Shown one piece after another: positions 9,183-48,540 of a stretch of 64,000 bases of DNA. Within the stretch, counting starts at the first letter, position 1, and each line of letters begins with the position of its first letter. The notes beneath the pieces were generated by a model, which searched no databases, was not told the origin of the DNA, and saw only the letters and a program-made list of their open reading frames with translations. Both the position numbers and the translations under genes were made by a program. Source of the DNA: Chloroflexia bacterium (lineage in GTDB: Bacteria > Chloroflexota > Chloroflexia > QHBQ01 > JADMIH01); contig DASVRN010000100.1 in the NCBI GenBank assembly GCA_036388595.1, forward strand, positions 11,524 through 75,523, read 5' to 3'.

Positions 9183-9247
9183 GATAATTCCTCCTAAAAT
9201 ATCGGTACGAACCTCTACAGCAGCAAGCGGGGTGCCAAGAGAGTAAT

Positions 9248-9412
9248 GAGGACTGAGGACTGAGGACTGAGGACTGAGTGTTTACTTGCGAGCTCCTCAG
9301 CCTCATCGCTAGAATTGCCTTGCATCTGATGGGAGTGTGGTGCATAATAGCGAAACGGCGTGTGAGGCTGTGAATGGCCGAGCTACTCAGTCCTCAGTCC
9401 TCAGTCCTCATC
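9248..9412. repeat. heptamer-arm hairpin element: (GAGGACT)n ... (CAGTCCT)n
   Basis: gaggactgaggactgaggactgag at 9248-9277 and its complement tcagtcctcagtcctcagtcctca at 9385-9412, about 105 bp apart. It sits in the divergent LLM/MTase intergenic region. Confidence 0.8.
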
Positions 9413-9434
9413 ACTGGTCAGAAAGGCCGGCTCG

Positions 9435-11608: not shown

Positions 11609-11747
11609 GGGGCAATGAGTAAGAGACGAAACCGCAAAGGCGCAAAGAGCGCAAAGGACGCGCAAAGAGCATGAGGGTACGGGGCATACAAGAGCATGAT
11701 GCCCGTACCCTCGTCGGTGGCCCCGGTATTGGGCCCATAGAACCAAG

Positions 11748-11896
11748 CCCCTTCTGTCATCCTGAGCGCAGCGAAGGATCTCAAGAAGGTGAGTAGGGAT
11801 GCTGTTGAACGGCACGTACCAGGGTGCTGAACCTTCACCACAAGGGGTAAGGCAGCATCCTAGATCCTTCGCTACGCTCAGGATGACAGGGTGGGG
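11748..11896. repeat. MITE-like palindromic element, copy 4 (tcctgagcg variant)
   Basis: ccttctgtcatcctgagcgcagcgaaggatctc ... gatccttcgctacgctcaggatgacagggtgggg. The core shares gtagggatgctgttgaac with the solo arm at 6496. Confidence 0.75.
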
Positions 11897-12074
11897 CTTG
11901 GCCCTGCAAGAGCGGCATGGGGGCTACCCACGAGGGCAGGATACAGAGAGCGCCTACACACTCCAAACCATTATCTACTTAGTGTTACCTCTGAGCGTCC
12001 TTTGCGCTCTTTGCCCCTTTGCGGTTTCGTCTCTTGGGCAAGCCCACCGTCCGGTTTGTTGCAGGGGATACATT

Positions 12075-12110: not shown

Positions 12111-12377
12111 GTGAGTAATTATCTAATTGACGTGCATCTCTATATGGAAAAGGGGATGTACGAGCGGCTGGTGGACCGGGCGCAGGAGCTTGGGACACCT
12201 TTGAGCGCGGTGGTACGTGAGGCGGTGGTGGAGTACTTCGCCAACATCCCCGAGGTGTCCGACCGCAGCGGCGATATGCCCCAACCCGAAGACGCCATCT
12301 GGCAGATACCCACATTGAGCCAGTCATTCGGGGCGCTCAACGTGCCTGGAATGGGCGGCAACGGAGGTAATCGCTGA
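12111..12377 (+). CDS. ribbon-helix-helix (CopG/VapB-like) antitoxin-like protein
   Basis: 88 aa, GTG start. ...ERLVDRAQELGTPLSAVVREAVVEYF is the RHH pattern. Its stop overlaps the downstream ATG (TGATG). Confidence 0.6.
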   Translation: MSNYLIDVHLYMEKGMYERLVDRAQELGTPLSAVVREAVVEYFANIPEVSDRSGDMPQPEDAIWQIPTLSQSFGALNVPGMGGNGGNR

Positions 12378-12814
12378 TGCGACGCCAGCACAGGCTTATT
12401 TTTGTGAACACCAGCGGCTGGCTGGCCCTCTACAACCCCAACGACCCCAATCACGCCGCCGCCCGCGCCCTCTGGGACGACCTGCGCAACCAGCCGGTGC
12501 GCTTCGTGACCACCGACTACGTGCTGGACCAGGTGTTCACCGCCATGAAGGTGTTCGGCTCTCTGGATGCGGCCCAGGCGATTTACACGGTGGTCAACAA
12601 CACCTCGCTGTTGCGCTTCTTCATGACCGACAGCGTCATCTTCGAGCGGGCCTGGAAGATCTTCGTGGACGACGAGCACCCCCAGTTCACCTTCACCGAC
12701 TGCATCAACTACGCCGTTATCCAGTACCTCGGCGCCGACGAGGTGTTCACCTTCGACCCCAACTTCACCGCGCCAGGGTTGATTAGAATTCCGTCTTCAG
12801 GTGCCAGGGGGTAG
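12377..12814 (+). CDS. PIN-domain (VapC-like) protein
   Basis: 145 aa, RLIFVNTSGWLAL ... TFTDCINYAVIQ ... FTFDPNF. This is a PIN fold, but the first conserved acidic residue reads Asn (FVNTSG). Confidence 0.7.
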   Translation: MRRQHRLIFVNTSGWLALYNPNDPNHAAARALWDDLRNQPVRFVTTDYVLDQVFTAMKVFGSLDAAQAIYTVVNNTSLLRFFMTDSVIFERAWKIFVDDEHPQFTFTDCINYAVIQYLGADEVFTFDPNFTAPGLIRIPSSGARG

Positions 12815-13160
12815 GGCTGAAACGTGAAACGTGAAACGTGATGCGGCCTGTGTTATTTGGTGCGTGGATTCGAGGGTGCTTCTATAGCAGCAGAACCCCA
12901 CTCCCTTCTGTCATCCTGAGCGTAGCGAAGGATCAGGTGAGTAGGCGAGAGTCCTCAACGTTGTGGATGATGCAGGTACGAGCAGCAGGGCACCTCAACA
13001 TCAAGGGTCAAGAACGGGCTACTGATCCTTCGCTACGCTCAGGATGACAAAGGGGAGCAAGGGTTCCTTACATGAAACAGGGTCGCCTCGTGAGTTGAGG
13101 CGACCCTGTTTCTTTTTGCGTACTAAGCTTCCCCTACCGCATCACGTTTCACGTTTCAGC
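12812..13160. repeat. composite element: (GAAACGT)n / (CACGTTT)n hairpin arms enclosing MITE-like copy 5 (12897-13057)
   Basis: gaaacgtgaaacgtgaaacgtgatgcgg at 12812-12840 and catcacgtttcacgtttcag at 13135-13160. Inside lies cccttctgtcatcctgagcgtagcgaaggatcagg ... ctgatccttcgctacgctcaggatgacaaagggga. Confidence 0.75.
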
Positions 13161-14166
13161 CACCGATGTGCGACATCTCCACCTTCGACCGCCTCACCGT
13201 CTCTAGGGTGCGCAGGTCGGAGTAGCGGTCGGTGCGGCGACGCCAGACTTTGGCGACGAAGGCTGATAGCTCCTCGTCAGTTTTGCCGGAGCGGAGGAGG
13301 GCGCGCAGGTCGTGGCCGTAGTTGCCGAAGAGGCAGGTGAAGAGTTGGCCCTCCGGCGAAAGGCGGGCGCGGGTGCAGGTGCCGCAGAAGGGTTGGGTGA
13401 TGGAGGAGATGATACCGATTTCGCCGCCGCCATCGAGGTAGCGGTAGCGGGAGGCCACTTCGCCCGTGTAGTTCGGCTCGGCGGGTTCGATGGGCATCTC
13501 GGCGTTGATGACGCGCACGATCTCAGAGGCGGGCACCACGTCGTCCATGCGCCAGCCATTGGTGGTGCCCACGTCCATGTACTCGATGAAGCGCAGAATG
13601 TAGCCGGTGCCGTGGAAGTAGCGGGCCATGGGCAGGATGCTGCTTTCGTTCACGCCACGCTGGACCACCATGTTGATCTTGATCGGCCACAGCCCGGCTT
13701 CCCGGGCGGCCTCAAGCCCTTCCAGCACGCGCCCCACCGGGAAGTCCACATCGTTCATCGACCGGAACACCGCATCGTCTAGCGAGTCGAGGCTGACCGT
13801 GAGGCGCTTCAGCCCGGCCTCCTTCAACGCAACGGCCTTCTTCGTGAGGAGCGCGCCGTTGGTGGTAAGAGTGAGGTCCTTGAGGCCATCCAGCGAGGCG
13901 AGCATGGCGATCAGCTTCTCCAGGTCGCGCCGCACCAACGGCTCCCCGCCCGTGATGCGCAGCTTCTCGACGCCGAGGCCGATGAAGACATGGGCCAGGC
14001 GGGTAATCTCCTCGAAGGTCAGCAGGTCGGCGCTGGGCAGGAACTGGAAGTCGCGCCCGAACACCTCCTTGGGCATGCAGTAGGTGCAGCGGAAATTGCA
14101 CCTATCGGTCACCGAGATGCGCAGGTCGTGGAGGGGCCTATTCAGTTGGTCAGTGGGCTTTTGCAT
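13156..14166 (-). CDS. moaA: GTP 3',8-cyclase MoaA (radical SAM)
   Basis: [18 protein letters not shown]...GGEPLVRRD. Start placed at the internal Met (ATG 14166, MQKPTDQL). The track N-terminus translates the GGATTTT repeat. Confidence 0.9.
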
Positions 14167-14167
14167 T

Positions 14168-14247
14168 TTGGATTTTGGATTTTGGATTTTAGATTGGTTT
14201 GGAGTGCTTCTTAATCCAAAATCCAAAACCTAAAATCCAAAATCGAA
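14168..14247. repeat. heptamer-arm hairpin: (GGATTTT)n ... (AAAATCC)n inside the moa operon
   Basis: ggattttggattttggattttagattgg at 14170-14197 and ccaaaatccaaaacctaaaatccaaaatc at 14214-14245. Confidence 0.8.
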
Positions 14248-15039: not shown

Positions 15040-15293
15040 GTGATTGCATACAGGGCTGTGACAAAGTCGATGGGTTGCAACCTATAGGACCAGGCACCAC
15101 CCTTGTCATTTCGAACGCAGTGAGAAATCTCGTCCTCCAGCACCCAAAGCCAACCTTTATCCAACTATCCAGCATTATAACAAGATAGTCTCACAAGAAA
15201 CGGCCACAGCCCGGTGAAGGACGAGACTTCTCACTGCGTTCGAAATGACAGGGCGGTGCCTGGTCTCATAATTCGACTTTGTCACAGCCCTGG
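15040..15293. repeat. MITE-like palindromic element, copy 6 (tttcgaacg variant, extended ~60-bp terminal inverted repeats)
   Basis: Inner arms cccttgtcatttcgaacgcagtgagaaatctcgtcc / ggacgagacttctcactgcgttcgaaatgacaggg. Outer arms cagggctgtgacaaagtcga...gaccaggcacc and ggtgcctggtc...tcgactttgtcacagccctg. Confidence 0.75.
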
Positions 15294-19579: not shown

Positions 19580-19733
19580 CCCCGTGTCATCCTGAGCGCA
19601 GCGAAGGATCTCAGATGCTGCCTTTATCCCTGTGCTGAACCCTCCGCGTCATGTTCGCTACCATTCAGCCGTATCCCTGTTCACCTTCTTGAGATCCTTC
19701 GCTACGCTCAGGATGACAGGGGCACTCTTGGTC
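19580..19733. repeat. MITE-like palindromic element, copy 7 (tcctgagcg variant)
   Basis: cccccgtgtcatcctgagcgcagcgaaggatctcagatgctgcctttatccctgtgctgaaccctccgcg...gagatccttcgctacgctcaggatgacaggggc. The core is nearly identical to copy 8. Confidence 0.75.
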
Positions 19734-19751: not shown

Positions 19752-19795
19752 TCACATCGCGCTACTCAGTCCTCAGTCCTCAGTCCTCAGTCCTC
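19752..19795. repeat. unpaired (CAGTCCT)n tandem array
   Basis: tactcagtcctcagtcctcagtcctcagtcctcagcac. Same unit as the hairpin arm at 9385, with no complementary arm nearby. Confidence 0.7.
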
Positions 19796-19810
19796 AGCAC
19801 TCATTACTCG

Positions 19811-21667: not shown

Positions 21668-21735
21668 AGGATGAGGAGGATGGAGGATGGACGATGGACG
21701 ATGGACGATGGACGATGGACGATGGACGATAGGAT
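21668..21735. repeat. unpaired (GGAGGAT)(GGACGAT)n tandem array
   Basis: ggaggatggaggatggacgatggacgatggacgatggacgatggacgatggacgatagg. The same GGACGAT unit recurs at 36098 and 57963. Confidence 0.7.
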
Positions 21736-21792: not shown

Positions 21793-21958
21793 CCAACGCT
21801 CCCCTTTGTCATCCTGAGCGTAGCGAAGGATCTCAGATGCTGCCTTTATCCCTGTGCTGAACCCTCCGCGCCATGTTCGCTACCATTCAACAGCCTCCCT
21901 ACTCACCTTCTTGAGATTCTTCGCTACGCTCAGGATGACAAAGGGGAGCGTTGGTACT
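21793..21958. repeat. MITE-like palindromic element, copy 8 (tcctgagcg variant, longer TIRs)
   Basis: accaacgctcccctttgtcatcctgagcgtagcgaaggatctc...gattcttcgctacgctcaggatgacaaaggggagcgttggt. The core is over 90% identical to copy 7. Confidence 0.75.
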
Positions 21959-26756: not shown

Positions 26757-26834
26757 TTTGGGAATTGGGATTTCGGATTTCGGATTTTGTTCCGATTTCC
26801 AGCTAAATCCGAATTCCGAATTCCGAAATCCCAA
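26757..26834. repeat. hairpin element ggatttgggaattgggatttcggatttcgg ... ccgaattccgaattccgaaatcccaaat
   Basis: Near-palindromic arms end 1 nt before the ATG at 26835. The left arm is about 90% identical to the element at 39304. Confidence 0.75.
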
Positions 26835-29800
26835 ATGGTAAGAACTTACATCGCGTTTGACCTCGAAGCTACCGGGATGCAGCCGGAACGGGACGAGGTA
26901 ATCGAGATAGGGGCTGTGAAGTTCCGGGACGGCCAGATTATTGGCCGTTGGGAGAGCTTCGTGCGGCCTTCGCAGCAGATCCCCTACAAGGTGCAACAGC
27001 TTACGGGCATCAAGCCCGCCGACGTGGCGCGCGCTCCTCATATCTCCCAGGTGGCTAGCGATTTCATAAAGTTCGTGGGCGACTCGCCGGTGATTGGGCA
27101 ATCGGTGGAGCTTGACCTGGCGATGCTGGAGCGGCACGGGGTTAGGCTGCCCAACGTGGCGTGGGACACCTTCGAGCTTGCCACCTTGCTGGTGCCTGAG
27201 GCGGCGGTGTACAACCTGCGCAACGTGGCCGACAAGCTGGGCGTGAAGCAGGAGGTGCGCGCCCACCGAGCGGTGGCCGACGCCGAGCTGACGATGCGGG
27301 TCTTCCTGGCGCTGCGGGAGCGGATAGAAGAGTTGCCGCTGGAGGTGCTGAGCGAAATAGGCAAGGCCACCAACCGTAGCGAATGGCCCTTGCGTCTGCT
27401 GTTCCAGGAAGTCGAGCACGAGAAGGCCCGCACAGCGTTTTCAGGGGGTATAGGCTCTTCGATACGCGCGCAGTTGCAGGCCAAGGGGCTGACCGACGCC
27501 GAGTTGGACGTGGGGATATTGCGCCAGCCGGACGAGGACATACAGTACGCACCCGTCGCCGCCGGGCATGAGGGCAAGTTCCCGCTGGACCACACCGAGC
27601 TAGAGAACATCCTCAAGCCGGGCGGGGCGATGTCGAAGGCGTTCGCGGGCTACGAGTACCGGCCCCAGCAGCTTGAGATGACCAAAGCGGTGGCAAGCGC
27701 GCTGAACAAGGGGCGTCACCTGATAGTGGAGGCGGGCACCGGCACGGGCAAGAGCCTGGGCTACCTCCTCCCAGCCGTGCTCTACGCCCTGCGCACCGGC
27801 GAGCAAGTGGTGATTTCCACCAACACCATCAACCTGCAAGACCAACTCTTCACCAAAGACCTCCCCCTCCTCCACCGCGTACTGGAAGGCCCCCCTGCGG
27901 GCAGCAAGTCCGGCAAGAATCAAATCCAAAATCCAAAACCCAAAATCCAAAATGGCGACGCCATCATCCAGGAGCCGTTCCACGACGCGCTGATGAAGGG
28001 TAAGGGCAACTACATTTGCTTGCGGCGGTGGTACCAGTTCCGGCGCAGCGTGCCCTCCTCCGTGGAGCAGTTGCGAGTGATGGTGAAGGTGCTCATCTGG
28101 CTGCCGCAGACTGAGACCGGGGACCGCAACGAACTGCTGCTGCTCAACGAAGAGAACGACGTATGGGGCCACCTCAAGGTGAGCGAGGAGGGGTGCCCGC
28201 CGTTCGAGTGCCGGGTGCGCCAGAAGGGGCTCTGCTTCTTCGACCGGGCGCGCCGCCGTGCCTACGGGGCCAACGTCATAGTGGTGAACCACGCGCTGCT
28301 GCTGGCCGACCTGGCGATGGGCGGGGGTGTGCTGCCGGAGTACGACAACCTCATCATTGACGAGGCGCACAATCTGGAGGACGAGGCCACCGACGCGCTC
28401 GGCTTCACGGTAGACCGCCGGGGGCTGGTGAGGCTGCTGGAGGACCTGAGCAGCGGCTCGGCGGCCCGTTACAGGGAGGACGATTTCCTCACCGCCCTAC
28501 GCAACGCCCTGGCCGCTGACATCTCTAAGGGGCTGAAGGTGAAGGGTGGCAGCCGGGTGGAGGCAGGGGCCACGCGCAACCTGCTCACGGGCGTGGACGA
28601 CGTTATAGCGAAGCTGCGGCCCAGCATAGAACGGGCGCGGCAGTCTACTGTGGAGTTGTTCGGGCAGCTAAACTCGGTCATGGAAGTGTACCAGGACGAG
28701 CAAAACGTGTACGACCTACGGCAGCGCATCACCAACGAGGTGAGACGGCACCCATCTTGGGGCCAGGTGGAGATGGTCTGGGACAACCTGGGCCTGCAAC
28801 TGAAGGAGATCGAGGACGGGCTGTCGCGCATCGGCACCGTGTTGGGCGACGTGGACTGGGACAACATCCCCCGCTCCGGCACCGGCGATGTGCCCGCCTA
28901 CGCCGACATGCTGATAGAGCTGCGCGGCCTCATCACCAATGTGCACAAGCTGCGCGCCGACGCCAACGCCGCCATTACCAACCCCGACGAAGGGGCGGTA
29001 TACTGGCTGGAGGCTAGGGTGAAAGGCGGGGATGTGGCCCTCAAGTGCGCGCCGTTGCACGTGGAGGAGCTGCTGGACCGCTACCTCTTCTCCAAGAAGC
29101 GGGCGGTGGTGCTCACCTCGGCCACCCTCTCCACCGACAACGACTTCTCGTACATATTGGAGCGTCTGGGGCTGCACAGCAGCGAGCAGTTGCAGCTATC
29201 GTCGCCGTTCGACTACCAGAAATCGGCCCTGGTGTACGTGCCCACCGACATGCCGGAGCCTGCCACCGCCGGGTACCAGCGCAGCCTCGAACAGGCGCTC
29301 ATCGAGTTATGTAAAGCCTCACAGGGGCGGGCGCTGGTGCTCTTCACCTCTCACAGCGCGGTGCGTACCACGTACCGGGCGATACAGCGTCCGCTGGAAG
29401 AGGCGGGCATCATGGTGCTGGGGCACAACATCGACGGCTCGCGGCGGCAGTTGCTGGAGCGGTTCAAGAACAACCCCAGGACGGTGCTGCTGGGCACGTC
29501 CTCCTTCTGGGAGGGTATAGACGTGGTGGGGGATGCGCTGTCGGTGCTGGTGATCGCCAAGCTGCCGTTCGCGGTGCCCACCGACCCGGTATTCGCGGCC
29601 CGCGCTGAGGGGTTCGAGGACGCCTTCCTGCAATACTCGGTGCCCCAGGCCATCCTCAAGTTCAAGCAGGGCTTTGGCCGCCTCATCAGGAGCCGCAACG
29701 ACCGGGGAGTGGTGGCCGTGCTCGACCGCCGCGTCATCTCCAAGCGGTACGGCCAGGCCTTCCTCAACTCCCTCCCCGAAGCCACGGTGAAGCACGGGCT

Positions 29801-29846
29801 GACGGCCAATCTACCGGGTGCGGTGGCGAACTGGCTGCGACAGTAA
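26835..29846 (+). CDS. dinG: bifunctional DnaQ-like 3'-5' exonuclease / DinG-family (XPD-like, Fe-S) ATP-dependent DNA helicase
   Basis: N-terminal YIAFDLEATGMQPERDEVIEIGAV (DEDD exonuclease motif I). Walker A AGTGTGKSLGYLLP and DEAH box IIDEAHNLED. Cys cluster C..C...C...C between them (Fe-S). C-terminal helicase domain. Start at MVRTY (26835). Confidence 0.9.
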   Translation: MVRTYIAFDLEATGMQPERDEVIEIGAVKFRDGQIIGRWESFVRPSQQIPYKVQQLTGIKPADVARAPHISQVASDFIKFVGDSPVIGQSVELDLAMLERHGVRLPNVAWDTFELATLLVPEAAVYNLRNVADKLGVKQEVRAHRAVADAELTMRVFLALRERIEELPLEVLSEIGKATNRSEWPLRLLFQEVEHEKARTAFSGGIGSSIRAQLQAKGLTDAELDVGILRQPDEDIQYAPVAAGHEGKFPLDHTELENILKPGGAMSKAFAGYEYRPQQLEMTKAVASALNKGRHLIVEAGTGTGKSLGYLLPAVLYALRTGEQVVISTNTINLQDQLFTKDLPLLHRVLEGPPAGSKSGKNQIQNPKPKIQNGDAIIQEPFHDALMKGKGNYICLRRWYQFRRSVPSSVEQLRVMVKVLIWLPQTETGDRNELLLLNEENDVWGHLKVSEEGCPPFECRVRQKGLCFFDRARRRAYGANVIVVNHALLLADLAMGGGVLPEYDNLIIDEAHNLEDEATDALGFTVDRRGLVRLLEDLSSGSAARYREDDFLTALRNALAADISKGLKVKGGSRVEAGATRNLLTGVDDVIAKLRPSIERARQSTVELFGQLNSVMEVYQDEQNVYDLRQRITNEVRRHPSWGQVEMVWDNLGLQLKEIEDGLSRIGTVLGDVDWDNIPRSGTGDVPAYADMLIELRGLITNVHKLRADANAAITNPDEGAVYWLEARVKGGDVALKCAPLHVEELLDRYLFSKKRAVVLTSATLSTDNDFSYILERLGLHSSEQLQLSSPFDYQKSALVYVPTDMPEPATAGYQRSLEQALIELCKASQGRALVLFTSHSAVRTTYRAIQRPLEEAGIMVLGHNIDGSRRQLLERFKNNPRTVLLGTSSFWEGIDVVGDALSVLVIAKLPFAVPTDPVFAARAEGFEDAFLQYSVPQAILKFKQGFGRLIRSRNDRGVVAVLDRRVISKRYGQAFLNSLPEATVKHGLTANLPGAVANWLRQ
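27917..27957 (+). repeat. in-frame (ATCCAAA)n half-hairpin repeat inside dinG-like CDS
   Basis: aatcaaatccaaaatccaaaacccaaaatccaaaatgg encodes [13 protein letters not shown] between helicase motif Ia and the Fe-S region. No complementary arm lies within several hundred bp. Confidence 0.7.
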
Positions 29847-36094: not shown

Positions 36095-36097
36095 GGA

Positions 36098-36185
36098 CGA
36101 TAGTGGACGATGGACGATGGGTCCTGAGCCTGCGAAGGATGGACGATGGGTCCTGAGCCTGCGAAGGATGGACGATGGGTGATAT
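36098..36185. repeat. (GGACGAT)n array with 35-bp tandem duplication
   Basis: ggacgatagtggacgatggacgatgg, then [gtcctgagcctgcgaaggatggacgatgg] x2. Confidence 0.7.
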
Positions 36186-36208
36186 AAGCCTGCAAAGAGG
36201 AGGCTTGT

Positions 36209-37490: not shown

Positions 37491-37504
37491 AGGCTTGATT
37501 ATAG

Positions 37505-38010
37505 CAGAGTGGTTAGTGGTTAGTTGTTAGTTGTTAGTTGTTAGTTGTTAGTTGTTAGTTGTTAGTGCGGTTGGCCGTTCGGCATGTTCTAGCGGCTAAT
37601 AGTGATACATGCTTTGGAGCCGGAAGGTTCAAAGTGGAGAGCAGGCACATACAATACTGTATATCCTATTACTAACCCAGGGTACGAGCATCGTCGGCAG
37701 GAGAGAGGCAGAAAAGAGTAGACGCATTATATGTTATTGGGTCCATAGGAGACGCCCGTCGATTAAAATCGAGGGCTACACCTTGCGAAGTCTGCCACAG
37801 GGCAGACTGATTCATCTAGCAGCATCTATGAGAACTTAATGAGATGCTCCAGTCCCGCAGGGACTTTACAAAGTGTAGCCCTCGATTTCAATCGACGGGC
37901 GTCCCCTGCCGAGAAGGACCTCTCCCTACCACCAACCACCAACCACCAACCACCAACCACCAACCACCAACCACTAACCACTAACCACTAACCACTAACC
38001 ACTAACCACT
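37505..38010. repeat. large composite element: (TTAGTTG)n left arm, imperfect (CCAACCA)n(CTAACCA)n right arm, enclosing a 32-bp inverted repeat pair
   Basis: gttagttgttagttgttag... at 37511-37570 and accaaccacc...ctaaccactaaccactaacc at 37925-38010. Inner IR ggagacgcccgtcgattaaaatcgagggctacacc (37748-37782) / ggtgtagccctcgatttcaatcgacgggcgtcccc (37870-37904). Confidence 0.7.
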
Positions 38011-38017
38011 CCCCCCT

Positions 38018-38027
38018 GTGCTATAAT
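38018..38027 (+). promoter_or_regulatory. extended -10 promoter TGTGcTATAAT
   Basis: cccccctgTGcTATAATgtgcc lies immediately after the repeat arm. The implied TSS is ~38034, so the downstream gene start must be later than the track call 38028. Confidence 0.5.

Positions 38028-40857: not shown

Positions 40858-40861
<4 letters not shown>
39437..40861 (+). CDS. YvcK/CofD-family (gluconeogenesis factor-like) protein with N-terminal TM extension
   Basis: RIVAVGGGTGMPTLLRGLKGVTDNIAAVVNVVDDGGSSGRLRRD is the UPF0052/YvcK signature. Preceded by about 100 aa with 2-3 TM helices. Start placed at MANAGG (39437) because a TATAAT at 39397-39402 precludes 39416. Confidence 0.8.
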
Positions 40862-42002
<1,141 letters not shown>

Positions 42003-45819: not shown

Positions 45820-48339
45820 CTATGACGTATTTTGACTGCTTAGCCTTATGGCGTCTTCAAGCCACTTTCCTGCAGTAGTTGTCTTTGGATGTTCAGGCCC
45901 TAGGTACTTGTGAAATGTTCTGTACGCACTTGTCAGGCATCCCTGTGCCTCTTGAAAATTGCCTCCTTCTAGTAGGGCTACACCCAAGTTGGCCAGCCAT
46001 GTAGCTGCTTCTGGGTGGTCTGGACCATATACTGCTTCGCCAATAGCAAATGCTCTCTCGAAGTTAGAACGTGCCCCTTGCAGGTCTCCAAGTTCTCGTA
46101 GTACGGTGCCTAACATGCTTAATCTCACTGCCACATTTGGATGATTAGGACCGTACACGGACTTATCAATGGCAAGTGCCCTCTCTAAGTTGGAGCGTGC
46201 CCCTTGCAGGTCTCCAAGTGCTCGTAGTATAGCGCCCAAGTTATTTAAGCCTACAGCTACATGAGGGTGATCAGGGCCATGCACAGACTTGATTATAGCA
46301 AGTGCTCTCTCGAAGTTGGAGCGTGCCCCTTGCAGGTCTCCAAGTTCTCGTAGTACGGTACCTAAGTTATTCAACCTTGCAGCCACAGTAGGATGGTCTG
46401 GACCATACATAGACTTACCTATAGCAAGGGCTCTCTCGTGGTTGGAGCGTGCCCCTTGTAAGTCTCCAAGTACTCGTAGTACCGTGCCTAAGTTATTCAA
46501 CCGTATAGCCACTGTAGGATGGTCTGGACCATACACTGCTTCGCCAATCACTATTGCTCTTTCAAGCTGGTCTCTTGCCTCCTTGTACTGTGCTCTATGC
46601 TCCAGATATAAGCCCACCTCGTTCAAAACATGCGATAGTAATTCACCAATTCCCTTAGTAGTAGGTATTTGTAAGTCAAAAAAGGAGATCACTGCTAACG
46701 CGTGCGGCAACACACTAGCTGCAATAGGCCATGTACCCATGCCGTCTATTCTATAGCTGAAGCCATCTCCCACTACACGTAAGGCTGCCTCTATCCACGT
46801 CTGCCTCGCATCAGGTGACAGTTTATCGCGTACTACAGCTTGTACCAGACGGTGGATTGATATACTGCGTCTATCTTTGTCTACCTCAACCAGCGAATAC
46901 TTGCCTAACTCTCCAACTACGTCATCCAACTTAAGAGGTTCCGATACTGCTTTCTTGAGGCTCTCCGGCAAGTGGTCAGCCCCTGCTACGATCATGTCTA
47001 ACGGAATGTCCTCAGGAGCGAAGAAAGCGCACAGATTCAGCAGGTCGGCTGCCGCCGGTGAGTGCCCGCGCACGGCTTGGAATGTTAGCTCCCAGGTAGC
47101 AGCTATGGTGGCTGGATAATCGTCCGAAGGGATGAATGCCTTATCTCTGTACTCCTGGAACAAGGGCAGATAGTCGGCTAGCGATTTCTGTTTCTGCTCC
47201 ATGTATGCACCTGCCTGTGCCAGGGCTATGGGCAGAAAACCCAACCCCTCCGCGAGTTTGCCTGCTGTGGCTCGGTCCTTCTCCCCCGTGCGTTTCAGCA
47301 GGAAATCAACGGCTTCCTCCGGCTCCAGCACTTCTACAACTACGGGTTGAGCGTATTGCCGCCAGTTCGGGTTGCGGGACGTAATGAGCACATGCCCGGT
47401 GCCGACTTGAGGCAGATACTTCGCTATTTGCTTGCCATCCTCCGCATTGTCAAACACAAGCAGCCACCTGGTGTTCTCCCTCAGCCAGCGTAAGACTGCC
47501 TTAACATCAGCATCCTGGTCCCTGGTGTCTAGCTGAGATATTCCCAGTTCGCCCGCTAAAGCTGCAAAATCGGCTGCGAGCGTGGTAGGTTCCTCAGCAC
47601 GCACCCACAACACAGCATCATATTCGCCTGCATAACGGTAGGCATATTCATTGGCAAGCTGTGTCTTGCCAACACCACCCAACCCGTGTAGGGCTTGAGG
47701 CTGCGTCAAGGCGGCGTGCTGGCCGGAGGTAAGTTTCTCAAGTAGGTCTTGAAGCAATTCCTCACGCCCGGTGAAATTGAGGTTGCGGGAGTGTGGCACC
47801 GTCCAAACCCTCGGGAGGGCGGGCCTCGGGGGTAGGGGCGGCGTAGTGCTGGAACGCGTCGCAGAACCACTTTGCCTGCTTCGCCTTAGTGCCTCCGCTA
47901 CTTTCGCTATTCCTTGTGCGACATTGGTAAAGGCTTCATCTATATCCGGCCAACTCCTGACAGGCTTCCCATCGGTTGGTAAGAAGTTTAGCTTTCCGAA
48001 TATCGCACCCTTCCAGTACACGGAACGTATGATGATGGGAATAACACTCGCTTTGCGGGCCTCGTGCCGTTCCATAGCTCGCTTCAACTCCACGCTGGAG
48101 CAGTAACGGGAGGCAAGGAAGTCAGAACTGATAAGAAGGAGTATTATATCTGCGCTATTAAGGTGCTCATCTATCTCGTGCTCCCACTCTGTGCCCGCGC
48201 TGATGTTGCGGTCGTGCCAATTACTGATCACACCGTTGGTTCTCAATATGCTAAGATGCTTTTCAAGTTTGTCGCGAAGGTCCTCATCCTCATGTGCATA
48301 TGAGTAGAACACCTCCAATGGCTTTTCTGCGTCAGACAT
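45820..48339 (-). CDS. TIR - NB-ARC (STAND P-loop NTPase) - TPR-repeat protein
   Basis: Start MSDAEKPLEVFYSYAHEDEDL (ATG 48339). TIR-like domain (...SADIILLLISSDFLASRYCSSVELKRAMERH...). Walker A GLGGVGKTQLANEYAYRY. NB-ARC-like region (LLVFDNAED...ITSRN). About 7 near-identical 42-aa TPR units (ERALAIGKSMYGPDHPTVAARLNNLGTVLRELGDLQGARSNF). Codon usage is visibly AT-richer than that of neighbouring genes. Confidence 0.85.
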   Translation of the reverse strand: MSDAEKPLEVFYSYAHEDEDLRDKLEKHLSILRTNGVISNWHDRNISAGTEWEHEIDEHLNSADIILLLISSDFLASRYCSSVELKRAMERHEARKASVIPIIIRSVYWKGAIFGKLNFLPTDGKPVRSWPDIDEAFTNVAQGIAKVAEALRRSRQSGSATRSSTTPPLPPRPALPRVWTVPHSRNLNFTGREELLQDLLEKLTSGQHAALTQPQALHGLGGVGKTQLANEYAYRYAGEYDAVLWVRAEEPTTLAADFAALAGELGISQLDTRDQDADVKAVLRWLRENTRWLLVFDNAEDGKQIAKYLPQVGTGHVLITSRNPNWRQYAQPVVVEVLEPEEAVDFLLKRTGEKDRATAGKLAEGLGFLPIALAQAGAYMEQKQKSLADYLPLFQEYRDKAFIPSDDYPATIAATWELTFQAVRGHSPAAADLLNLCAFFAPEDIPLDMIVAGADHLPESLKKAVSEPLKLDDVVGELGKYSLVEVDKDRRSISIHRLVQAVVRDKLSPDARQTWIEAALRVVGDGFSYRIDGMGTWPIAASVLPHALAVISFFDLQIPTTKGIGELLSHVLNEVGLYLEHRAQYKEARDQLERAIVIGEAVYGPDHPTVAIRLNNLGTVLRVLGDLQGARSNHERALAIGKSMYGPDHPTVAARLNNLGTVLRELGDLQGARSNFERALAIIKSVHGPDHPHVAVGLNNLGAILRALGDLQGARSNLERALAIDKSVYGPNHPNVAVRLSMLGTVLRELGDLQGARSNFERAFAIGEAVYGPDHPEAATWLANLGVALLEGGNFQEAQGCLTSAYRTFHKYLGPEHPKTTTAGKWLEDAIRLSSQNTS

Positions 48340-48540
48340 ACGTTGCTCCCCAAGGCGAGGTATGAGAACACAGTGGCTTGTGTATAGCCACATTATAGCT
48401 GTACTAATGTTTGTAGGGAAGTGATAGCGCGTGCTTACAGATCGGGCAATAGTTGTAGAGGAATGGACAGGGTCTAATCGCGAGCAAAGCCAACAAGCAT
48501 CCACCTTCTAGGATGCTCGTTGGCTTTGTTCAGACGATAC

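Follow-up and report, generated by a model that had tools for sequence, protein, structure and literature searches.

We analysed the spacer between a PIN-domain toxin gene and moaA in a 64-kb stretch of Chloroflexia DNA (the window, by which we mean the whole stretch analysed). The two genes are convergent, PIN on the + strand and moaA on the - strand, and the 341 bp between them hold one palindrome inside another: an outer hairpin with arms built of GAAACGT heptamers and, within its loop, a head-to-head dimer of a 25-nt hairpin unit of the repetitive extragenic palindrome (REP) type. The first-pass annotation of this DNA had described a GAAACGT-armed palindrome around an inner palindrome, flanked by a PIN toxin gene and moaA; the architecture was borne out, and so were the gene labels, by the domain matches listed in Table 1. 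It had missed a third component, an intrinsic-terminator-like hairpin that also sits inside the outer loop.

The left arm of the outer hairpin directly adjoins the PIN stop codon, and the right arm includes the last glycine codon of moaA together with its stop. Positions 12825-12846 pair with 13137-13158 (22 nt, 100%) and, in a register moved by one heptamer, 12815-12834 pair with 13142-13161 (20 nt, 100%); since there are three GAAACGT units in the left arm versus two in the right, pairing leaves a 7-nt bulge. The arms had been placed at 12812-12840 and 13135-13160, with 15 bp as the least complementarity expected of them; they are real and perfect over the lengths just given, the positions alone being a few bases off. 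Tandem Repeats Finder (TRF) also reported the arrays in both arms, and a count of the motif GAAACGTGAAACGTGA in the window gave 7 copies where 0.02 were expected. We read the terminal GATGCGG of the left arm as a degenerate unit of CGTGATG type belonging to the same array family, because arrays found in metagenomes mix CGTGAAA and CGTGATG units. The complementarity takes in GGCTGA, the last codon and stop of moaA, which is mirrored beside the PIN stop; such a copy fits arm-to-arm copying, though it comprises six bases only.

Orthologous loci provided natural empty sites. Four of them (L204, L205, L206 and L207; MoaA 85-91%) share the synteny thiS-moaE-moaA facing a convergent PIN-antitoxin-methylase group, and in all four the outer hairpin occupies the same position at the gene ends, in a spacer of 101-152 bp that lacks the inner element. 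The spacer of L204 (MoaA 91%) measures 152 bp versus 341 bp in the window and reads, from the moaA stop, CGCT(GAAACGT)3GATGCGG, a loop of about 80 nt, CCGCATC(ACGTTTC)4 and the PIN stop. Its loop keeps a hairpin homologous to the window terminator (GGAGGGTCGC...GCGACCCTC, that is GGGTCGC...GCGACCC) followed by a T-run in the PIN sense, and no trace of the inner element was found there. L205 matches L204 as far as the end of its contig. In L207 (MoaA 90%) a 123-bp spacer has arms (ACGTAAC)3/(GTTACGT)7, and in L206 (MoaA 85%) a 101-bp spacer has arms ACGTAAC-GAGTAAC/...GTTACG; both are free of the insert, and both loops contain a small terminator different from that of the window. More distant relatives vary: L208 (MoaA 83%) shows at least 11 copies of ACGTAAA straight after the moaA stop, up to a contig break, L004 (MoaA 78%) has (GAATTAC)4, 7 nt and (GTAATTC)4.7 at the junction, and L209 and L210 (MoaA 80%) have no heptamer hairpins at all and are uninformative on the insertion. 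On this comparison L204 is taken as a true empty site, with arms and terminator kept and the inner element absent. Because the orthologues carry the hairpin without the insert, we interpret the outer hairpin as old and fixed at the PIN-moaA junction and the inner element, present in the window lineage only, as a later insertion; on these sequences a single gain of the dimer requires fewer events than its clean loss on three or more occasions.

The same succession is seen at a second nested composite (Table 1), which encloses a REP dimer of the type-A class (units at 11757 and 11864): its orthologues in L204 and L206 consist of the arms with a short loop between them and have no dimer. Of the two readings that the first-pass annotation had offered, the one in which one element was inserted into the loop of the other is thus supported, by the insert-free L204/L205, L207 and L206 loci and by this second nest. 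The site that it had proposed as the empty version, 40858-40978, is something else, namely a paralogous hairpin that lies upstream of gap at a different locus, with only the arms and one degenerate unit in common and with unrelated flanks. The arm (GAAACGT)3GATGCGG is present at 12815 and again at 40873, and the loops of both hairpins contain a short GAAACA(G/T)GGT stretch. At another site a REP dimer, of type C (15101-15253, upstream of thiS/moaD), has its orthologous position occupied in L206 (1906-2040), an 85% relative; some REP insertions are therefore old.

We then asked how often the two repeat classes meet. Among the 40 intergenic regions of the window, 14 contain heptamer arrays, 9 contain REP arms and 3 contain both (odds ratio 0.9, Fisher p=0.69). 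REP dimers and heptamer arrays share intergenic regions at chance level, with no evidence of targeting, and preferential insertion into hairpin loops was rejected on these figures. The other reading of the first-pass annotation, in which hairpins of this family target or duplicate DNA that is already structured, is not supported, given the same count and the greater age of the hairpin. An insertion was almost bound to land in the loop, because the arms abut coding sequences. The similar nesting that had been pointed out at 37505-38010 is genuine, with an inner palindrome of a different family: AGTGGTT/AGTTGTT and AACCACC/AACCACT arms surround an unrelated palindrome with 46-nt arms (37747-37907), another kind of doublet, made of TCGATT-GA-AATCGA mini-hairpins and found once in the window. 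Along this outer hairpin the left arm changes from AGTGGTT to AGTTGTT and the right from AACCACC to AACCACT, and the inner halves are 83-85% complementary, as if, from their sequence, the arms had been caught partway through a turnover of units.

Table 1. Features of the PIN-moaA junction and related structures in the window (positions are those of the window).
Feature	Position	Strand	Remarks
PIN-domain (VapC-like) toxin gene	12377-12814	+	open reading frame (ORF) and PF01850 on identical product; TAG stop 12812-12814
Outer left arm GGCT(GAAACGT)3GATGCGG	12815-12846		inverted-repeat search, TRF, period-7 array count
Inner element, REP-type head-to-head dimer	12893-13066		174 bp; symmetric outer extensions GAACCC...GGGTTC; oriented spacer about 89 nt
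Left REP unit GTCATCCTGAGCGTAGCGAAGGATC	12910-12934	+	tag TGTC 12909-12912
Right REP unit, same 25-mer as left unit	13024-13048	-	tag outward (head-to-head)
Intrinsic-terminator-like hairpin and TTTTT	13074-13117	+	hairpin 13074-13112: 17 pairs (10 G-C), 5-nt loop
Outer right arm CCGCATC(ACGTTTC)2AGCC	13137-13161		inverted-repeat search, ORF positions
moaA (GTP 3',8-cyclase)	13156-14166	-	PF04055 and PF06463; stop TGA 13156-13158, start ATG 14164-14166
moaE-moaA junction hairpin (GATTTTG)n/(CAAAATC)n	14159-14244		moaA ATG 14164-14166 inside right arm
Second nested composite	11621-12035		outer arms 11621-11667/11989-12035, 47 nt, 94%, 8-9-nt GCGCAAAGR units
Third nested composite	37498-38027		outer arms 37498-37567/37928-38027; inner arms 37747-37792/37862-37907
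Paralogous (GAAACGT)3 hairpin upstream of gap	40866-40980		43-55-nt loop

The inner palindrome of the PIN-moaA spacer has 36-nt arms (12901-12936/13022-13057; 94% complementary, 85 nt between them), and a weaker symmetry carries it out to 12893-13066. A complete palindrome of the "tcctgagcg" type had been annotated at 12897-13057: the palindrome stands, with the wider extent given here. Its building block is the 25-nt hairpin unit GTCATCCTGAGCGNAGCGAAGGATC, present in 18 copies in the window under three sub-types (GTCATCCTGAGCGNAGCGAAGGATC, GTCATTCTGAACGCAGTGAAGAATC and GTCATTTCGAACGNAGTGAGAAATC), all of them intergenic. The 18 units form 9 inverted pairs with their GTC ends outside and spacers of 60-89 nt, and every one reads TGTC-AT... 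The unit hairpin is composed of A-T, T-A, three covarying pairs, a tandem G.A/A.G, two further pairs and a 3-nt loop, so that the stem counts nine stacked positions with the tandem mismatch included; the loop G-N-A can also be taken as 5 nt if the closing C-G pair is left open, and the tail is CTC, CAG or CCC. In a set of 29 distinct variants drawn from the window, its relatives and viral contigs, 97% of cells were paired and compensatory changes occurred at 5 of the 7 pairs, compared with only 19-52% paired in slid controls; the GTCA, GA, GA and TC positions of this set were preset by the search pattern. The five type-A dimers share a homologous, oriented spacer, which runs one way in c11757 and c12911 and the opposite way in c3366, c19587 and c21809.

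These properties recall a described class. In CGTC-tagged REPs the unpaired 5' tag is often TGTC, the stem of 8-9 bp starts from A-T pairs, the loop measures 4-5 nt and the 3-nt tail conforms to CCA (Di Nocera, De Gregorio & Rocco 2013, BMC Genomics 14:522; PMC3733652). They occur predominantly as head-to-head dimers with the tags outside and spacers of 20-100 bp, lie in intergenic regions, often between convergent or co-directional genes, admit the tag variants TGTC and CCTC, and are near-identical across distant phyla, five being listed, with no dedicated transposase known (PMC3733652). The Chloroflexi are listed there for GTAG repeats only and not among the five CGTC phyla (PMC3733652). The window unit resembles these REPs in its tag, first stem pairs, stem of about nine positions, tail starting with C, head-to-head pairing, intergenic location, recurrence in distant phyla and spacing, the spacers, 76-89 nt in this comparison, falling toward the long end of the published range. 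It differs in a stem broken by an apparently fixed tandem G.A/A.G, in a loop of 3 nt (or 5) rather than 4-5, and in a CTC, CAG or CCC tail rather than CCA. Translations of intragenic copies in the supplement of the same paper (PMC3733652) back-translate to units of the kind GTC-ATTCCCGC-GAAA-GCGGGAAT-C. By sequence the inner unit resembles, and probably belongs to, the superfamily of CGTC/TGTC-tagged REPs, in which the paper distinguishes four families, a likeness judged from the paper's description.

Two other identities were considered. REPINs are REP doublets that form hairpins, tagged with GTAG and accompanied by a flanking REP-associated tyrosine transposase (RAYT) gene (Bertels & Rainey 2011, PMC3116915). 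Like them, the inner element has two inverted conserved units, a less conserved spacer and a single long hairpin, is extragenic and numerous, and its singletons look like decayed dimers. Unlike them, it lacks the GTAG tag, a flanking RAYT gene was found neither in the window nor in the retrieved loci of the relatives, and the unit is common to several phyla instead of being species-specific. GTAG arises only where the variable loop base is T (CGTAGCG), and this base is A, C, G or T among the copies. A RAYT-mobilised REPIN was therefore not adopted as the identity of the element, the tag being absent and RAYT not found. The first-pass label of "MITE-like" (miniature inverted-repeat transposable element) proved imprecise. 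It is indeed a small multi-copy element without coding sequence, bounded by terminal inverted repeats and containing an oriented internal stretch. The target-site duplications that the same annotation had looked to at its boundaries are absent, however: no direct repeats were seen at the ends of the 9 dimers, whose flanks continue a weak inverted symmetry. Nor was a related full-length insertion sequence or a parent transposase found, and the "terminal repeats" are autonomous hairpin units that also occur singly; the element is a dimer of such small units of REP/REPIN type.

The 25-nt unit is not confined to Chloroflexia. The exact type-A unit is present in 64 stretches of IMG/VR viral contigs with G+C contents of 0.43-0.70 and unrelated flanks, and the unit was also found in Thermoanaerobaculia metagenome-assembled genomes (MAGs). 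Viral-contig pairs are head-to-head in 9 cases, tail-to-tail in 1 and head-to-tail in 1, with spacers of 19-44 nt; their units carry an NGTC tag. The tag CGTC itself is present in L061. At five viral-contig loci (L240, L260, L261, L271 and L272) several full REP units have in front of them a truncated repeat of the unit's 5' half (for example ...GTCATCCTGAGCACC... GTCATCCTGAGCG...), which hints at recurrent partial duplication at the tagged end. A BLAST search of plasmids with the inner element gave no match, and a literature search by sequence string returned unrelated primer matches only.

In several places REP units and heptamers lie side by side. Each of the REP dimers at 19587-19716 and 21809-21938 is accompanied by a single heptamer array (CTCAGTC x4.7 at 19765-19797 and GGACGAT x8 at 21675-21730, respectively), and the other side has no complementary partner. 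At 36095-36208 a 29-nt tandem repeat of 2.5 copies alternates GGACGAT heptamers with GTCCTGAGCCTGCGAAGGA; the latter resembles the REP-unit core without its GTCAT tag, and from their sequence the two repeat classes appear to have been fused and co-amplified. In a Thermoanaerobaculia MAG (L006, 8305-8490), the DNA just upstream of moaA contains a REP head-to-head dimer along with a (GAAGGAT)x4.7 array and a short ATCCTTCAT complement, and the heptamer is identical to part of the REP arm (CGAAGGATC).

The outer hairpin belongs to a much larger population. The window contains 26 exact period-7 arrays, whereas each of the other periods from 4 to 12 yields 0-3. Most of them form inverted pairs (11 paired hairpins), with locus-specific units such as TGAGGAC, TTCTTAA, TTTTGGA, AATTACG, CGGATTT, AGTGGTT and others. 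The intergenic regions that hold arrays, about a third of the total, are of every orientation type, and the arms usually lie 0-25 nt from start or stop codons. Three arrays fall inside called ORFs, and only that at 27922-27953 was confirmed in frame; the one at 26808-26827 probably lies in an over-extended ORF start. The in-frame array is one-armed, (AAATCCA)x4.6, in a DinG-like exonuclease/helicase (ORF 26787-29846, + strand; RNase_T, DEAD and Helicase_C_2 domains); intragenic REPs, according to Di Nocera et al. (2013, PMC3733652), often sit in genes for replication and repair. Array density ranges from 4.4 to 14.5 per 10 kb across the window, L004 and L204-L207, and is 2.4 per 10 kb in L208, the contig of which breaks inside an array. 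In 1.27 Mb around moaA of 79 other genomes it is 0.19 per 10 kb, and it is zero in L209 and L210; the enrichment of the clade over other genomes is thus 20-70 times. Scanning metagenomes for GAAACGTGAAACGTGATG yielded at least 120 contigs, their G+C contents ranging from 0.32 to 0.70 and many of them from unrelated organisms rather than paralogues of this genome, with arrays mixing CGTGAAA, CGTGATG, CGTGAGG and CGTGTTG units. Where a partner arm is present in these metagenomic hairpins, the loop is nearly always 4-90 nt, and long hairpin loops are the exception.

Short tandemly repeated repetitive (STRR) sequences have the canonical units CCCCAGT, TTGGTCA and CAACAGT and cyanobacterial hosts; the window arrays differ from them in their units and in their Chloroflexia host. 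Heptameric intergenic repeats include, besides cyanobacterial STRR, the GGGAATC type of Xanthomonas and Nostoc and the TAACTGA repeats of Beggiatoaceae, and a regulatory role was suggested in Nostoc (PMC4692102, PMC4679880, bioRxiv 10.1101/2022.06.06.494920). Such repeats are over-represented in many bacteria, lie near gene ends, sometimes as inverted pairs, have been attributed to polymerase slippage, and vary in sequence and length between the same genes of different Xanthomonas species (PMC4692102, PMC4679880). The window arrays agree with these in their 7-nt tandem units, their excess of period 7, their intergenic position near start and stop codons and their recurrence at the same junctions in relatives. 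They differ in inverted pairing as the rule, in the many units used, in their host and in the concerted behaviour of their arms, and our literature search found no description of concerted inverted heptamer arrays for Chloroflexota.

This concerted behaviour is apparent at two junctions. After the moaA stop the unit is ACGTGAA in the window and L204/L205, ACGTAAA in L208, ACGTAAC in L207 and L206 and ACGAATT in L004; each version fills all units of both arms, while the counts differ between arms (3 vs 2, 3 vs 4, 3 vs 7). At the moaE-moaA junction, where no Shine-Dalgarno sequence is visible at the moaA start, the hairpin units are GATTTTG in the window, GATTTCG/GATTGCG in L204, GAATTTC/GGAATTG in L206 and AAAGGAA in L004. 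From these comparisons we conclude that the arms of the outer hairpin change their unit sequence in concert between species. The arms of the window hairpins are nearly pure Watson-Crick, with arm-arm duplex energies of -35 to -86 kcal/mol, and the sense strand is the better one, by duplex energy and G-U pairs, in only 4 of the 7 co-directional cases. With so slight an imbalance and no G-U enrichment, no signal of RNA-level selection on the arms was seen; nearly pure Watson-Crick arms without a sense-strand advantage fit a symmetrising process at the DNA level.

Taken together, these observations lead us to view the spacer as three independent structured elements of differing age: an old heptamer hairpin, the terminator of the PIN operon and a later REP-type dimer, nested without targeting. 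We hold this account to be likely, with good confidence, and the comparisons above demonstrate that the hairpin preceded the dimer, that the three components are independent and that targeting is absent. In this scenario the inverted heptamer-array hairpin would have come first, flush against both stop codons, with an intrinsic terminator for the PIN operon in its loop; the predicted terminator is oriented to end the antitoxin-PIN operon. The REP-type head-to-head dimer would have entered the loop after the split from the closest sampled relatives, and no targeting would be needed, the loop being nearly the sole neutral DNA open to insertion. Quasi-palindrome correction is an established mutational mechanism. 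Replication slippage would homogenise the units within an arm, and intramolecular template switching or gene conversion would copy changes between the inverted arms. By analogy, a trans-acting HUH-type enzyme probably moved the dimer in single-stranded form, a route that leaves no target duplication. In transcripts, the stack would probably act as a highly stable structure at the 3' ends of both convergent genes, and the U-tract terminator would serve the PIN operon.

Several points weigh against this account. The relatives are MAGs or metagenome contigs without an established branching order, and the loops of the window and L204 cannot be aligned outside the terminator, leaving the exact insertion junction undefined. 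The concerted change of the arms could reflect, on the same sequences, selection for pairing instead of neutral template switching. Hairpins also lie between divergent genes (9242-9415 and 37498-38027), where a 3'-end role is impossible. As regards mobilisation, no Y1_Tnp or any other transposase domain, and no RAYT, was detected among the approximately 40 proteins of the window, and the basis for a probable HUH-type enzyme is analogy only.

Four other explanations were weighed against a hairpin later invaded by a dimer. Long palindromes are prone to deletion, and REPIN excision has been reported in Pseudomonas (PMC3116915), so the dimer may have been in the loop from the start and been cleanly lost in the L204/L205, L207 and L206 lineages, a history to which an unsettled branching order lends some room. 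We judge it improbable, however: at least three independent deletions would be needed, each sparing the arms and the loop hairpins, the second nest would demand likewise, and the dimer at 15101-15253, retained in L206, indicates that old insertions can persist. Alternatively, the whole nested fold might be one functional RNA or cis-regulatory structure selected as a unit. The 363-nt region folds into the nested structure, with -190.4 kcal/mol (z=-10.3) for the + strand and -188.7 kcal/mol (z=-14.5) for the - strand, energies that shuffled sequences never reached, and the position of the outer hairpin is conserved. Nonetheless, nothing relevant was returned from Rfam, whether by a gathering-threshold search of the whole window or by a search of 12700-13300 at E<=10; the inner part is missing from close relatives, the transcribed strand shows neither asymmetry nor G-U enrichment, and all three components occur independently elsewhere, which makes selection of the fold as a unit very improbable.

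The remaining two we regard as scarcely credible. That the heptamer arms formed around, or were drawn to, a pre-existing structured element would accommodate three nests in one 64-kb window, the two further REP dimers with an array on one side (19765-19797 and 21675-21730) and the similar arrangement of L006 in another phylum, but four orthologous loci have the arms without the insert, the co-occurrence is at chance level, and most such hairpins have short, empty loops. Equally remote is a single composite mobile element made of arms, terminator and dimer, with the heptamer arrays as its terminal inverted repeats. The recurrence of the same arm at 12815 and 40873, with the short loop stretch GAAACA(G/T)GGT in common, would agree with it; the flanks and the rest of the loop sequences are nevertheless unrelated, the hairpin is fixed at the same junction across species with its units drifting in situ, and the window has no other composite copy.

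The surroundings are chromosomal and unremarkable: the genes of the window include those for GreA and for the lysyl- and glutamyl-tRNA synthetases, as well as gap, tpi and the moa operon, and no tRNA gene is present. An identical PIN protein is encoded on a 74.7-kb JGI metagenome contig (3300034236) and in two other assemblies of like structure. The closest genome by MoaA is an uncultured Chloroflexia MAG (78%), and the MoaA homologues at 85-91% are also labelled Chloroflexia. Elsewhere in the window, a protein of defence-like type with TIR, NB-ARC/STAND NTPase and TPR domains is encoded at 45820-48504 (- strand); the 126-bp tandem repeat that TRF reports at 46016-46548 is the TPR_12 repeat region of this protein.

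What had looked like a palindrome in a palindrome thus becomes a dated series of events, with natural empty sites as proof, and nested intergenic repeats can arise simply from arms abutting coding sequence, without targeted insertion. Both components of the nest are known kinds of bacterial intergenic repeat, superimposed, and two poorly understood repeat classes, the heptameric intergenic arrays and the CGTC/TGTC-tagged REP dimers, are extended to Chloroflexota. That a 25-nt REP unit recurs almost unchanged in different phyla and in viral contigs raises the question of what mobilises or conserves such units. The more interesting by-product is the lineage-wide set of heptamer hairpins with co-evolving arms, which provides a comparative series of co-changing hairpin arms useful for studying the concerted evolution of quasi-palindromes. 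It is conceivable, although rather doubtful, that these hairpins are a functional, genome-wide punctuation in this uncultured Chloroflexia clade, placed at about a third of the junctions, kept at the same ones across species and shaped by selection for pairing and not just by neutral slippage, with their loops serving as safe landing pads for REP-type elements and terminators. If so, the selection on pairing might act through, for example, transcript-end protection, the tuning of operon-internal expression, or the occlusion of a start codon, as at moaA.

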